Positions 53,388-57,851 of a DNA stretch of 64,000 bases are shown here, piece by piece. The position numbers were made by a program, and so were the translations under genes. This DNA is from a virus. The stretch lies in IMG/VR virus record IMGVR_UViG_3300025534_000004, positions 32,001-96,000 of that record. One strand, given 5' to 3'. Every line of letters starts with the position of its first letter. Position 1 is the first letter of the stretch. Under the pieces are notes generated by a model. That model did no database searches. It was given only the letters and a program-made list of their open reading frames with translations, and was not told where the DNA came from.

Positions 53388-53597
53388 TCACCGTCCCAGC
53401 GGTGCGCAATAACGGGAACCGTCGTCCATGCTGCCCAAGACGGCGCAGCGCGCCACGAAGGGATCGGTGCCGCGTTCGATGAGCCGTGCGACCGCCTCAT
53501 ATCGCGCACGGTCGCGCAGATCGGAGAACCCGCTACAGGTGATGATGGTCACCGCGACCAGCGCGGCGATGGCGAGCCAGAATTTCTTGGTATCCAT
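53388..53597 (-). CDS. Small membrane protein
   Basis: N-terminal TM helix; DPFVARCA tail. Confidence 0.6.
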   Translation of the reverse strand: MDTKKFWLAIAALVAVTIITCSGFSDLRDRARYEAVARLIERGTDPFVARCAVLGSMDDGSRYCAPLGR

Positions 53598-53670
53598 GAC
53601 GAATGCCTTCTCAAAATGGAGTTTTGAGAACCGACTTATCTCGGTTTGCGGCAGGCCGTCAAGGGAGGCT

Positions 53671-53747
53671 TGGATGCGGGCGGGGGACTTGCACCCCCAT
53701 CGTTGGGTTATGAGCCCAAGCTGGCACTACTTCCAGTCTAGCCCGCA
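53671..53747 (-). tRNA. tRNA-Met(CAT), atypical, initiator-like
   Basis: TTGGG-CTCATAA-CCCAA arm with three G-C pairs; CCA end; T-loop TGCAAGT; TAAATA at 53752-53757. Confidence 0.75.
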
Positions 53748-54288
53748 ACCCTATTTATCAGCGGGGCTTAATCCCGCGCTCGCACCGAATTAGGAGGCGC
53801 TGCGGCGTGAAACCGGCTTGGACTTTACCGACCGGGAGGTCCGGACCGCCCTCGCCTCGGACCGGTTACAGGCTTCCGTGGGTGTGCGGGACTATCTGAT
53901 GGCGCGGGCCAAGCTCAAGCAGCAGCGACGCGCTGCGTGAGGAAGAACATGGATGCATAGGCGACCCCGTTGTCGATCCTGTCGTCAGGAAGCAGGCCGA
54001 CGAGGATTGCCTTTCTTTCCATGCAGGTTTCGATGAGATCGTTCATACCGGCTCCCATCTTGAATTTGTACTATTTCATCGATCTCGCCACGGGCCGCTA
54101 CTGGTCCTCGAACGCTCAGGATTTCGTCGCGCCTGCTGATGCAACGCCGCTGACGTGGTCCGACCGCGTATACCGTGGTGCGCCCGCTGCTCGACGATCC
54201 GGACTTCCGATATACCATGCTGGCCGTCGATGACGCTTCCGGTCGCGCCGTTCTGCTTCGTCGGCTCAAAGGGCACTATCAGGTTAGA

Positions 54289-55854
54289 TCACGCAGCCAC
54301 TAGGGCTGGTGTCGTCCCTGATTTCACGGACGCCTCGCGGCGTTTGGATGACCTCACCACGGCCAGCGACACCCCACCGAAGTAAGGGTTCGTCATTCGT
54401 GGGTCGGCGGGGGCACCCCTGCTCCCGGTTCTGCCCGGCCGCATGGACCGGACACGTCGCTCCCCGAAGGCGCGCACGACTTCGGCAAGGACAGACGCCT
54501 TCGACTGGAACACCGAACCGATAGCCAGCGCACGGCGCTGGCCGATGTTGGGTGCCGCATTGAGGTCGGCGTGCTTGGTGTGGCCGCACCACAGGCACCG
54601 GAAGGTGCCTTGTGATGGGCGATTGCGCTTGTCCACGTAGCCGCAGGCGTTGCAGGTCTGCGACGAATAGGCCGGGTTGACCTCGGTGGACGTGATGCCG
54701 AACCGCTGTTCGATGTCGGCCAATTTCGACTGGATGACGGACCTGCCGCAGTTCCGCAGGATGGCGTTCAGGCGTCGGGACAGGTCCGGGTTGCGGAAGT
54801 CCAGCCGCTCAAGAACCAGTTCCTTCGGGCGCCCCTGCGCCACGAGGTGGTTCAGGACGCGGCCGACCTCGGTGCGGAGGAACCCGCGCACGTCCTCGAC
54901 CAGCGCCCGATACCGCTTGCTGTCGCGGGGCTTCTTCCCGGCCCGCTGCTGGCTGGCGGCGATCATCGTGAGCAGGGCGTCGTAGCGCCGCAGGCGCCTG
55001 AGCCAGCCCTGCCCGAGCAACTGGCCCTCGGAGGTGGCGAATAGTGTGGAGAGGCCGAAGTCGAGCGCGATGACGCCGTGACCATTGTAGTCAGCACGCG
55101 ACTTGGCGCACGCCTCGCCCATGTCGGTGACGACGCCGAAGGTCAGCCGCCCCTCGCGGTTCAGATTGACCTGCACGCCGTTGGTGACACGACCCGGCCG
55201 CTCCGCATGGTAGTCGTAGGTCAGCAGCGGGACGGCGATTTTCCGGCCCGGCTCCATGGTGGACAGGTTGACCCACCAGCCGACCTTGCCGCCCTGCGTG
55301 GCCTTGGTCGGGGCCGCGAGGCAGGCGGCCCGGTGGTCGAGGCGCATGGAGATGCGGGACAGGTCCGGCCTGCGGTGCCGCCCCATGACATGCCGCATGA
55401 TGGACCGCGCCAGTCGCCGCACGTCGCCGGGGATAATTTCCCCGGTGTCCTTCATGGCGATGTCCGCCCGGAGGAACCACGCTCCCATGCGGTTCACGAC
55501 GTGGAGCATGTGCTTGGTGTCGGGCGGCAGGGTGCTCCGGTTCACCGCGTCGCGGAATTCGTTGGCGCGGTTGCTGATCCAGCCCTGCAACTGGCCGACG
55601 ACCTGATACCGGCACATCTGGACCCGGTTCGCCGCGCCGATGACGGCGGCGAAGGTCGTCTTGTCCACGTCGTGGTTCTTGTTGAACCGGCCCGTCTCGA
55701 AGAACAGCCGCCACTGCTCGCGCCCTAGCAACACCGCGCCCCGGCGATACGCCGCCAGCAGGTCCAGCACCTTCGCCCGCTTACCCGCCGTCAAGTTCGA
55801 CGGCAGGAGGTCGGTGCGGTGGACCGGCGGGTGTTCGGGGCGCTTGCGTGCCAT
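54289..55854 (-). CDS. tnpB: TnpB/Cas12f-like RuvC nuclease (521 aa)
   Basis: RuvC-I IALDFG, RuvC-II LVLERL, VNPAYSSQTCNACG...FRCLWCG zinc ribbon, RuvC-III HADLNAAPNI. Confidence 0.85.
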   Translation of the reverse strand: MARKRPEHPPVHRTDLLPSNLTAGKRAKVLDLLAAYRRGAVLLGREQWRLFFETGRFNKNHDVDKTTFAAVIGAANRVQMCRYQVVGQLQGWISNRANEFRDAVNRSTLPPDTKHMLHVVNRMGAWFLRADIAMKDTGEIIPGDVRRLARSIMRHVMGRHRRPDLSRISMRLDHRAACLAAPTKATQGGKVGWWVNLSTMEPGRKIAVPLLTYDYHAERPGRVTNGVQVNLNREGRLTFGVVTDMGEACAKSRADYNGHGVIALDFGLSTLFATSEGQLLGQGWLRRLRRYDALLTMIAASQQRAGKKPRDSKRYRALVEDVRGFLRTEVGRVLNHLVAQGRPKELVLERLDFRNPDLSRRLNAILRNCGRSVIQSKLADIEQRFGITSTEVNPAYSSQTCNACGYVDKRNRPSQGTFRCLWCGHTKHADLNAAPNIGQRRALAIGSVFQSKASVLAEVVRAFGERRVRSMRPGRTGSRGAPADPRMTNPYFGGVSLAVVRSSKRREASVKSGTTPALVAA

Positions 55855-56819
55855 CAGGCCGCTTTCGCCGTGACGAAGCCGTAGGACAGCAACCGCCCTT
55901 CGCCGTTGCGGACCATCTGCGTCATCCGGTCGAGGCAGGCGTCACCCTTGCGGTTCCAGCGGAAGGTGGCCTCGCTGGCATACCTGCCGAGGTGCTTGAC
56001 GCTGATCTGGTGCCAGACGCCGATGACGGCGCGGCGCATGAAGCCGTTGAAGGATTCGACCCGGTTGACGTGAACCCGGTGCCCTGTCGCCTCATCGGTG
56101 CGGGCATACTCGCGGTCGGAGTGATTGACCGAGAGGTGAGGCTGGTTCTTGCCGATGTGCTTGTAGGCCGGGAGGCCGTCCGTCATCACCGTGGCCTTCG
56201 GGTCCACCACCCCGTCCAGTGCCTCAGAAATCGCGGCCTTGCCGTGCGTCGGGATGACCTTCGCCACCACATCTCCGCCACGTTCGGCGGCCACGAGAAC
56301 GAGCGGGCGCTTGGTGCCCCGTCCTTTCGGGTTGGCGGGCGGCGGCTCGCTGTCGTCGTGGTCACGGGACGGCTTGGCCCGCTTCCGGGGCGGCGCACCC
56401 GCATACATCTCGTCAATCTCGACCACCCCGGCGAGAATGGGATTGGCTTCGGCCATCATTGCCCGGATGCGGTGCCCGAGGTGCCATGCGGTCGGGTATG
56501 AGACGCCCAACATCTCGCCCAACTTGACCGCGCTGATACCCTTGCTGGATGCCACAATCAGGTAGAACGCCTGCAACCATGTCAGCAGGGGCAAATGCGT
56601 CCGGTGCATCGGCGTCCCCGCCGTGACCGAGAAGTGCTTCCGGCAACCCGAGCAGCACCAGACCCGCTTCGTCCCGATCCACCACGCCTTGCCGACGAGG
56701 CCGCAGTGGTAGCACTCAGGGCCGTTCGGCCACCGGGCGTGCTCGAACCACGCCCGAGCGGCGTCCTCGTCGGGGAACATGGCGTTGAAGGCACGGAGGG
56801 ACATGGACTGCTGACTCAC
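55854..56819 (-). CDS. IS1595-family (ISXO2-like) DDE transposase
   Basis: RWPNGPECYHCG...CSGCRKHFSVTAGT zinc ribbon; VEIDEMY, MTDG, NRVESF, HQISVKHL..Y..E..FRWN. Confidence 0.92.
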   Translation of the reverse strand: MSQQSMSLRAFNAMFPDEDAARAWFEHARWPNGPECYHCGLVGKAWWIGTKRVWCCSGCRKHFSVTAGTPMHRTHLPLLTWLQAFYLIVASSKGISAVKLGEMLGVSYPTAWHLGHRIRAMMAEANPILAGVVEIDEMYAGAPPRKRAKPSRDHDDSEPPPANPKGRGTKRPLVLVAAERGGDVVAKVIPTHGKAAISEALDGVVDPKATVMTDGLPAYKHIGKNQPHLSVNHSDREYARTDEATGHRVHVNRVESFNGFMRRAVIGVWHQISVKHLGRYASEATFRWNRKGDACLDRMTQMVRNGEGRLLSYGFVTAKAA

Positions 56820-56897
56820 GTTGCGACACTACATCTATTCAGCGTGTTCGTCAACCTGATAGGTCCGGGCTCAAATATCTGATCGGCATTCAGCGAA

Positions 56898-57215
56898 GTG
56901 CCCGTCACGCCGGAGATGCTCATCGAGGCTCTCCGCCCGCACGACGCGGTGTTGTGGTCCCATCTGGCGCTGGTTGATCATAAGGATGTCGTGGTGTCCG
57001 GGCGTCCGGTCAGGGATTTCGATCCCGAGGGCTGTGCCGAGCGTCTTTCGCGGATCGGAGTCTCGCCCGCGAATTACCGGATCGTCCCGCTCGGCAGTCT
57101 CCTGCTCAATGAGGAAGGCGCAGCGATGGTGATGCTCGCCGGAGGGAAGGCCGTCGGCCTCGACGCCGCCCGCGCTATCGCGGCAGAATGCAGTTTCGTA
57201 GAACTTCTTTCTTGA
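56898..57215 (+). CDS. Hypothetical protein, possibly the 3' remnant of a gene hit by the IS
   Basis: No clear RBS; begins just after the TSD. Confidence 0.4.
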   Translation: MPVTPEMLIEALRPHDAVLWSHLALVDHKDVVVSGRPVRDFDPEGCAERLSRIGVSPANYRIVPLGSLLLNEEGAAMVMLAGGKAVGLDAARAIAAECSFVELLS

Positions 57216-57248
57216 CGTTCATCGCTCCTATGGCAGAGTACGGCCAGA

Positions 57249-57851
57249 ATGCGATTTCAGGAGCCGTCGATGCCGCAGGTCCGGATGTGGAAGTGCCCCA
57301 AGACGGGCAAGCTGTTCGAGGACCTCGACGAATACCGTCAGCATCTCCGCGAGGTCGCGAGCGAGCGGTTCATGCGCCGGAAGGCCGTTGATTTCGTGCG
57401 GGCCGCCACCAGCGAGCTTCGGTGCCAGTCCAGCTTCGAGGACATCGCCGAGTGGATCGTCGCCAACAGCACCATGCTGGCGGTACGGGCTGCCTATCAT
57501 AATGCCATCGGGTGGCGGCAGGGCGAGCCGAACCTGATCCCGCCCTTTTTCTTCATCCGGCACGTCGAGTTCAAGGACATGGAGTGGCGTGAGGCCATCC
57601 GCCATAACAACCACGCTCCGCTCGGCCAGCCGACAGACCGGGATGTGGCCTCATCAGGATGGTATGGACGGTTGATCTTCCGGGCCAAGGGCGACCATTA
57701 CTGCATTACGAGGGATTTGTTCGCGGAGACCGGCATCAACCTCTGCAACGGGGTGGGCGGCGACGGGCGCTACCGATACCAAGTGATCCTGTTCGATGAG
57801 GATTTCCCGAACCTCTCGGTGATGTCCCGCCTGCGGCAGGAGGCGGCCTAA
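57249..57851 (+). CDS. Conserved phage hypothetical protein
   Basis: WKCPKTGKLF...Y..HL...H.AP...GWYGR motif. Confidence 0.7.
   Translation: MRFQEPSMPQVRMWKCPKTGKLFEDLDEYRQHLREVASERFMRRKAVDFVRAATSELRCQSSFEDIAEWIVANSTMLAVRAAYHNAIGWRQGEPNLIPPFFFIRHVEFKDMEWREAIRHNNHAPLGQPTDRDVASSGWYGRLIFRAKGDHYCITRDLFAETGINLCNGVGGDGRYRYQVILFDEDFPNLSVMSRLRQEAA

Follow-up and report, generated by a model that had tools for sequence, protein, structure and literature searches.

An IS1595-family element on a viral contig combines a DDE transposase, a TnpB-type nuclease gene and a predicted omegaRNA scaffold

The element and its two genes

The 64,000-nt stretch of DNA analysed here (the window, whose positions serve as coordinates throughout) comes from the virus record IMGVR_UViG_3300025534_000004, which is 147.7 kb long and belongs to a virus genome estimated by CheckV to be 28% complete. 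It harbors a mobile element of the IS1595 family that carries a transposase gene, a tnpB-like nuclease gene and an RNA module on the minus strand, and that is autonomous in its content. The genes, the ends of the element and the duplicated target bases on either side of it are located as follows:

54271..56867, minus strand: whole mobile element, IS1595 family, 2597 bp; homology to three full-length relatives (L003, L005, L002) begins and ends at exactly these bases
55854..56819, minus strand: gene for the IS1595-family DDE transposase P0002, 321 amino acids, assigned by Pfam and NCBIfam
54289..55854, minus strand: tnpB-like RuvC nuclease gene, product P0001, 521 amino acids, assigned by Pfam, PDB profile, Foldseek and conserved residues
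56853..56867, minus strand: left terminal inverted repeat, CGGACCTATCAGGTT, from comparison of the ends
54271..54285, minus strand: right terminal inverted repeat, AACCTGATAGTGCCC, part of helix H7 in the predicted RNA fold
54263..54270: right-side copy of the 8-bp target-site duplication, GGCTCAAA on the plus strand and TTTGAGCC on the minus strand, identical to 56868-56875
56868..56875: left-side copy of the 8-bp target-site duplication, an exact match to 54263-54270

The full-length relatives that define these boundaries come from a Trueperaceae metagenome-assembled genome (MAG), an Acidocella MAG and Methylacidimicrobium. On the right, homology to relatives from four phyla stops exactly at 54271, and the tnpB reading frame ends 18 nt inside this position, as an earlier note made from the sequence alone had stated. 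The inverted ends are imperfect, with 12 of 15 bp matching when aligned. The element is present as a single copy within its own virus record, and a search of a phage database with the element returned no matches. No convincing gene spans the reconstructed insertion junction, i.e. the insertion caused no clear gene disruption.

The transposase contains the DDE_Tnp_IS1595 domain (113 bits) together with Zn_ribbon_IS1595 (PF12760, PF12762), and scores 162.7 bits against the NCBIfam model transpos_IS1595 (NF033547), for which the cut-off is 75. This combination of zinc ribbon and DDE domain, along with short inverted ends and an 8-bp duplication, is the one found in IS1595 insertion sequences, from which the element differs by an extra coupled nuclease gene, a structured RNA of ~280 nt and a one-sided target motif. 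With a DDE transposase encoded by its only gene besides tnpB, and with inverted repeats and a duplication, the element falls outside IS200/IS605 and IS607, whose members have a Y1 HUH or serine-recombinase TnpA and neither inverted repeats nor a target duplication. The stop codon of the transposase gene overlaps the start codon of tnpB (TGATG at 55852-55856, minus strand); at the level of the sequence, the two genes are translationally coupled.

The family to which the tnpB product belongs counts at least 361 proteins of ~520 amino acids, and the product itself carries the Pfam domain Cas12f1-like_TNB (PF07282; 55.3 bits, cut-off 26.3). Among 31 homologues, D265 (in ALDFG), D430 (in HADLNA) and the zinc-ribbon cysteines C401, C404, C420 and C423 are invariant, and E349 (in VLERLDF) is kept in at least 90%. 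The Asp-Glu-Asp triad aligns to the RuvC domains of Cas12f and TnpB, and the profile of the family matches PDB structures of both. Using Foldseek, we compared an AlphaFold (AF2) model of P0001, with a predicted local distance difference test (pLDDT) score of 79, with the PDB. The model matched AsCas12f (8j12, E value 1.5e-14), ISFba1 TnpB (8iaz, 1.6e-11) and ISDra2 TnpB (8h1j, 3.8e-10), in alignments of ~460-520 columns with low TM scores of 0.35-0.48. Taken together, the predicted model and these matches indicate the overall WED-REC-RuvC fold.

RuvC-III lies at D430, and the C-terminal 55 residues (467-521) are predicted to be disordered, with pLDDT values below 50. The earlier note had described about 80 low-information codons after RuvC-III, which is roughly right, except that part of the tail is conserved: the stretch GSRGAPADPRxTNPYFGG is maintained at both the protein and the nucleotide level.

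The predicted RNA fold at the 3' end of tnpB

The final ~90 codons of tnpB and the right inverted repeat overlap a predicted RNA scaffold of ~280 nt, comprising the following parts:

54278..54553, minus strand: predicted omegaRNA scaffold with 14 helices and 75 pairs, continuing to the element end at 54271; identified by pair counts, G-U bias and a covariance model
54512..54553, minus strand: H0a, H0b and H1, a three-tier hairpin with an invariant CGU loop; at each pair, 4-8 sequences show a GC to CG swap
54457..54491, minus strand: H2a and H2b (CCGAAG/CTTCGG), a hairpin that is longer in L003 and L007
54433..54453, minus strand: H3 (GTCCGGTC/GGCCGGGC), with changes on both sides in 6 of 7 pairs
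54408..54427, minus strand: H4, with a conserved GGGG loop and at least five different stems, every one of them complementary
54352..54407, minus strand: H5, in four tiers, the tip being the hairpin at 54372-54387 with a UUCG loop
54330..54343, minus strand: H6, with a GNRA loop and AU to GC swaps
54278..54322, minus strand: H7, which covaries, enclosing H8 (the hairpin at 54294-54308)

In the earlier note, a probable omegaRNA at the 3' end of tnpB had been proposed from the hairpins CCTTAC-TTCG-GTGGGG (54372-54387), ACGCC-GCGA-GGCGT (54330-54343) and CAGCC-CTAGT-GGCTG (54294-54308). All three are present, their pairing being kept through changes on both sides, and the proposal is supported by a conserved, strand-specific fold with compensatory changes. 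The extent given there, from 54540, was right in location and slightly short, with the fold starting at ~54553. Covariation across homologous ends, which the earlier note had named as a way to check the RNA, was strong and strand-specific.

The structure was written for an alignment (A2) of 20 different copies over their final 300 nt and then scored against 500 shuffles, which do not preserve phylogeny, and against controls with slid partners, which keep the relatedness of the sequences. Paired cells amounted to 87.2%, compared with 76.2% in the shuffles and 36-43% when partners were slid. Changes on both sides affected 41 of the 75 pairs (shuffled, 25.0 ± 2.5; slid, 14-26), 141 cells were compensatory (51; 24-46), and the covariation score was 0.296 (0.142; 0.045-0.085). 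None of the 500 shuffles reached any one of the observed values.

On the sense strand of tnpB, the alignment contains 143 G-U cells versus 61 A-C cells, an excess that places the fold on this strand. The loop at the tip of H5 is UUCG in 14 of the 20 sequences. In the 14 sequences whose H6 loop has four bases and no gap, it is always GNRA (as GCGA, GUGA, GCAA, GGGA, GAAA or GGAA), the other six rows being gapped there. As read from the alignment, the G-U bias and the UUCG and GNRA loops are signatures at the level of RNA and not of DNA. Moreover, the stems and the encoded peptide change together, for instance from SRGAP to QRGLP over H4, which makes the RNA the stronger constraint in the tnpB tail. 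In codons 411-470, the identity of synonymous codons is raised to 0.60-0.63, versus ~0.47; the hairpin formed by H0a, H0b and H1 overlaps the codons for GQRRALA. A second, smaller rise in synonymous identity is located at tnpB codons 41-70 (55645-55734, minus strand), with 0.56-0.59 versus the same ~0.47.

Helix H7 pairs AUCAGG (54317-54322) with CCUGAU of the right inverted repeat (54278-54283) and covaries to AUCGCC/GGCGAU in L030, L209, L212, L032, L216 and L218. The left repeat changes in step with it, and H7 is therefore also open to a reading at the level of DNA. A pseudoknot between the last 7 nt (AGUGCCC) and an upstream GGGCA was checked by eye, displayed zero covariation and was dropped. 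Between H4 and H5, an unpaired CCGACCC (A2 columns 219-228; the 54402-54409 region, minus strand) hardly varies, even at third codon positions, among proteins that are 47-94% identical; it may be a site of protein contact or of tertiary pairing within the RNA.

A covariance model built from the 3' 162 nt matched 42 copies, all of them within the element family of P0001 and on the sense strand, and many absent from the set used to build the model. The matches cover the entire model in 41 of the 42 cases, the exception (L041) being cut off by the end of its contig. In the right-end junctions inspected, the last position of the model coincides with the last base of the element. More distant viral TnpB loci gave no match to the model. 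A scan of viral contigs with 15-mers produced 78 matches, of which the model accepted a single one, the already known L007. An Rfam scan of 53500-57500 matched no omegaRNA family.

Shortened copies that retain the RNA module were also found. A 385-bp miniature derivative (L041, 66-450) retains the two ends along with the 3' RNA module, which matches the covariance model at 67.5 bits, and is preceded by ATA. On an 85-kb viral contig (IMGVR_UViG_3300025534_000006), an internal-deletion derivative (L007, 2330-3483, equivalent to L111 and L327) keeps ~666 bp at the start of the element and ~465 bp at its end, and with them a full RNA module, with neither nuclease nor transposase left intact; the flanks of this derivative form no duplication (3 of 8 positions match). 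In an Acidiphilium MAG (G005), we observed 17 matches to the tnpB 3' region (L012-L028), many of them homologous only as far as 54372 (the NPYFGG codons) and followed by a different terminal module of ~100 nt that fits the covariance model weakly.

The target site and the proposed role of the nuclease

Immediately beyond the left duplication lies a trinucleotide that recurs at other insertions:

56876..56878, minus strand: ATA, the local instance of a one-sided R-T-A motif and a candidate target-adjacent motif (TAM); R-T-A in 19 of 19 and 4 of 4 junctions

R-T-A was found directly 5' of the left duplication in all 23 distinct left-end junctions, i.e. in 19 insertions and in four further junctions supplied by the P0146 element, whose transposase is 79% identical. 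The first 19 junctions comprise 10 ATA and 9 GTA, against a background of 0.19 each for T and A. The first duplicated base is A or T at all 23 left junctions and in 42 of 45 right ends. The remaining positions of the duplication and the right-side flank display no preference, and there is no mirror motif on the right, which makes the R-T-A motif one-sided. An exact 8-bp duplication was present in nine insertions with both junctions on one contig, and a further one, AAGTTCGC, was matched across contigs.

In side and strand, the motif is placed as a TnpB TAM has to be, which suggests R-T-A as a candidate TAM of the nuclease. As the duplication varies except for its first base and the conserved motif lies outside it, the duplication would have to be part of the guide and not of the TAM or the scaffold. 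A shared motif beside the duplications had been anticipated in the earlier note, with ...CAGATA as the candidate at this locus; the predicted place was right, and the motif itself narrows to ATA as an instance of RTA.

Other metagenome copies of the element family show swapped flanks. In contigs carrying the P0146 element, the left flank of L227 matches the right flank of L226, which identifies the swapped flanks as assembly chimeras of a multi-copy element. Assembly chimerism offers no explanation for the single genomic copy in Methylacidimicrobium tartarophylax (L002, 1983-4578), which has a diverged left end (CGCAATCATCAAG...) and no duplication (0 of 8), and is still preceded by GTA.

From the fold, the coding content and the target motif, we consider it probable that the 3' ~280 nt of this autonomous IS1595 element form the omegaRNA scaffold of its own TnpB-type nuclease, which would cut empty sites. 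The guide would then be the sequence next to the right end:

54251..54270, minus strand, read downwards from 54270: predicted guide, ~16-20 nt of flank, beginning TTTGAGCCGACGAAGC, deduced from where the RTA motif lies and from how TnpB works

A scan of both strands over 54100-57000, which covers the element end and ~170 nt of the right flank, returned no terminator-like site, so that a tnpB transcript should continue past 54271 into this flank. A promoter scan found no sigma-70-like promoter inside the element, which leaves a separate omegaRNA promoter unsupported; we therefore assume that the omegaRNA would be processed from the tnpB mRNA. TnpB has been shown to cut its own mRNA into omegaRNA (PMC10278001). 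The 3' extension of the scaffold would serve as a guide that opens with the 8 duplicated bases (TTTGAGCC GACGAAGC...). At an element-free site, the sequence matching this guide would stand directly after ATA, here taken as the TAM. The ribonucleoprotein would cut such an empty site and spare the occupied one: at the occupied right junction, the guide match is preceded by ...AGTGCCC, and at the left junction the motif is present with only 8 nt matching the guide after it. The self/non-self discrimination suggested in the earlier note is consistent with this arrangement. Repair from the occupied copy would restore or spread the element, and homing between co-infecting phages is plausible in this light.

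More tentatively, the insertion-site choice of the DDE transposase might be coupled to the TAM of the nuclease that it carries, either with TnpB picking the site or with only such insertions persisting, and this coupling could arm a homing drive, including one among co-infecting phages. We regard this extension as rather doubtful. If true, it would represent a prokaryotic OMEGA system that solves the problem of target duplication in a way unlike that of Fanzor1.

Several points weigh against a homing nuclease guided by the duplicated bases. We know of no biochemically tested member of the P0001 branch. On the NCBIfam model guided_TnpB (NF040570), P0001 reaches 70 bits, under the cut-off of 100, and only residues 222-440 match; it is a divergent branch, whose assignment to the family rests on domain, motifs and fold. 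An exact search of the viral collection did not find the empty allele of the insertion described here, nor that of a related phage insertion. In alignment A4, with 42 sequences, the 3' module is upheld, 26 of 40 pairs being compensatory, with counts that lean towards the structure because the sequences were fitted to the model. RTA may be a property of the transposase only: the one TnpB-less relative seen has a palindromic duplication, TCGTACGC, a comparison in which the P0241 loci are all one site and the three copies of the Neorhizobium element, which are tandem or duplicated, share a single palindromic site. Finally, an element that is excised by a DDE transposase leaves a break in any case, which renders the benefit of a homing nuclease less obvious (an argument made in PMC13565253).

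We then weighed what else could produce these patterns. That the hairpins arose by chance in a GC-rich coding tail, their covariation being only apparent and due to the relatedness of the sequences, is highly improbable. The folding energy of the single sequence has a z score of only -2.3, with 3 of 200 shuffles folding equally well, and the shuffle control leaves phylogeny aside; against this, once the partners are slid only 36-43% of cells instead of 87% are paired and only 24-46 instead of 141 are compensatory, several stems exist in four or five mutually complementary versions, and sequences outside the model-building set fit the model end to end. The fold may also be real and act in cis on the transposon or its mRNA, as a 3' stabiliser, an expression regulator or a subterminal site of transposase binding, with R-T-A being a preference of the transposase and TnpB having another role or none. 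This would accord with H7, which is explicable in DNA as a second, inverted copy of a transposase-binding motif, pairing with the right repeat and covarying with both inverted repeats, with the score of P0001 under the curated TnpB cut-off, and with the capacity of IS1595 relatives to target a specific sequence, namely TCGTACGC in three copies of one element. We nevertheless find such a cis role unlikely, as six more helices far from the repeat bear RNA signatures (the sense-strand G-U excess, UUCG and GNRA), the fold is placed exactly as the omegaRNAs of every studied TnpB, and the catalytic residues are all kept across the family, arguing for a selected nuclease function. A one-sided motif is likewise not readily explained by a symmetric transposase dimer; one would expect a DDE dimer that acts on near-symmetric ends to favour a symmetric target, so that under any reading the one-sidedness has to be accounted for.

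In a third scenario, TnpB and its RNA would act mainly on the occupied site, where binding to the left junction would regulate the adjacent transposase promoter, or in target choice, by steering the transposase to RTA, and not as a homing nuclease. Each left junction indeed consists of a TAM-like RTA and an 8-nt match to the predicted guide, short guides turn TnpB from cutting to binding (PMC13507860), and repressors derived from TnpB are known (PMC10705468). In addition, the motif stands at 23 of 23 junctions, those of apparently recent insertions included, and insertion choice accounts for this more easily than later selection does. The catalytic triad is kept here, unlike in known TnpB-derived regulators and Cas12k, and a match of 8 bp is short for stable binding. 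As for target choice, TAM-directed DDE insertion at zero distance has no known precedent, and the sequence offers nothing that separates it from a co-evolved preference of the transposase. We judge this scenario quite improbable, below the cis-element explanation, and retain an omegaRNA-guided nuclease that cuts empty sites as the preferred interpretation.

Known systems and related elements

To our knowledge, IS200/IS605 and IS607, neither of which has a target duplication, are the only families for which the biology of TnpB has been established. The question addressed here is how an RNA-guided nuclease serves a DDE element, for which the duplicated target is variable and excision possibly leaves a break. 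The element family offers an answer that can be tested, in the form of a scaffold that would absorb the inverted repeat, a guide that would start with the duplicated bases and a TAM-like signal of 3 nt outside the duplication. Being autonomous and compact (2.6 kb), the element also provides a new TnpB lineage with a short candidate TAM for genome-editing screens, and a natural case for asking whether transposon nucleases work as homing endonucleases among phages.

In 2023, Altae-Tran et al. (PNAS; PMC10691335) reported TnpBs that are linked to DDE transposases and have inverted ends, as branches DDE-1 to DDE-6, and inferred that guides are acquired at the transposon end. The present element resembles these branches, as presented there, in several ways: tnpB lies beside a DDE transposase gene within symmetric inverted terminal repeats, its 3' end is less than 250 bp from the transposon end (18 nt here), and solo TnpBs with the same ends exist (here L199 and L210). 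The main text of that paper covers neither an RNA structure nor a TAM, nor how the duplication relates to the guide. IS630 is the sole family named in this main text, and a 2026 review lists ISL2, IS630 and IS1031 (PMC13565253); IS1595 is absent from both, and our literature search returned no paper linking IS1595 with TnpB. The review asks for characterisation of DDE-linked TnpB systems.

Like ISDra2 TnpB (PDB 8H1J, 8EXA; IS200/IS605), P0001 has a RuvC and zinc-ribbon nuclease fold. The predicted scaffold overlaps the 3' end of tnpB and stops at the right end, with the guide taken from the right flank, and the candidate TAM would be the motif to the left of the insertion, the filled site being protected by the element that separates TAM from target, as in ISDra2. 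In contrast to the Y1 HUH enzyme, hairpin ends and lack of duplication in ISDra2, the element has a DDE transposase, inverted ends and an 8-bp duplication. P0001 is also longer (521 versus 408 amino acids), and its N-terminal half is unmatched by standard TnpB models. The candidate TAM has 3 nt (RTA) instead of TTGAT, and the duplicated target bases would come first in the guide.

Fanzor1 in eukaryotic DDE transposons with terminal inverted repeats is similar in that a TnpB homologue resides within a cut-and-paste element with inverted repeats and target duplications, and in that its RNA runs through the right repeat (PMC13565253). The TAM of Fanzor1 takes in the 5' duplication, and the Fanzor1 scaffold the 3' duplication (PMC13565253). 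The duplications of the IS1595 elements differ at all positions but the first (A or T), and their conserved motif lies outside, which departs from this use.

The element family is spread across Alphaproteobacteria, Verrucomicrobia, Deinococcota and phage contigs. An order-wide genome search matched 6 of 401 genomes; a protein-pattern scan of metagenomes was too general and returned mostly distant TnpBs. In JGI metagenome contigs (L225-L233), the P0146 element occupies at least four sites on phage-like contigs, near a terminase gene, a gene with an Acb1 domain and Enc34/GapR genes. Solo tnpB genes (L199, 2700-4574; L200, L210 and L211) keep the right end and have only a 3' stub of the transposase gene upstream, which is duplicated in L199. 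The L199 gene lies among phage-like genes for SSB and DUF1064 proteins, and 10 similar places were found in other samples.

A TnpB-less IS1595 relative with 38% identity is present on plasmid NZ_CP147997.1 of Neorhizobium sp. EC2-8 (L241-L247; 26.6-33.3 kb and 248.6-255.3 kb). Its copies are tandem and inverted, all flanked by the palindromic 8-mer TCGTACGC/GCGTACGA, and the entire block is duplicated in the plasmid.

Finally, a tRNA-Met gene (anticodon CAT) is located at 53671-53747 on the minus strand of the window, ~520 bp from the right end of the element. ARAGORN and Rfam (36.9 bits) agree on this assignment, which was the sole real match in the Rfam scan of the region.

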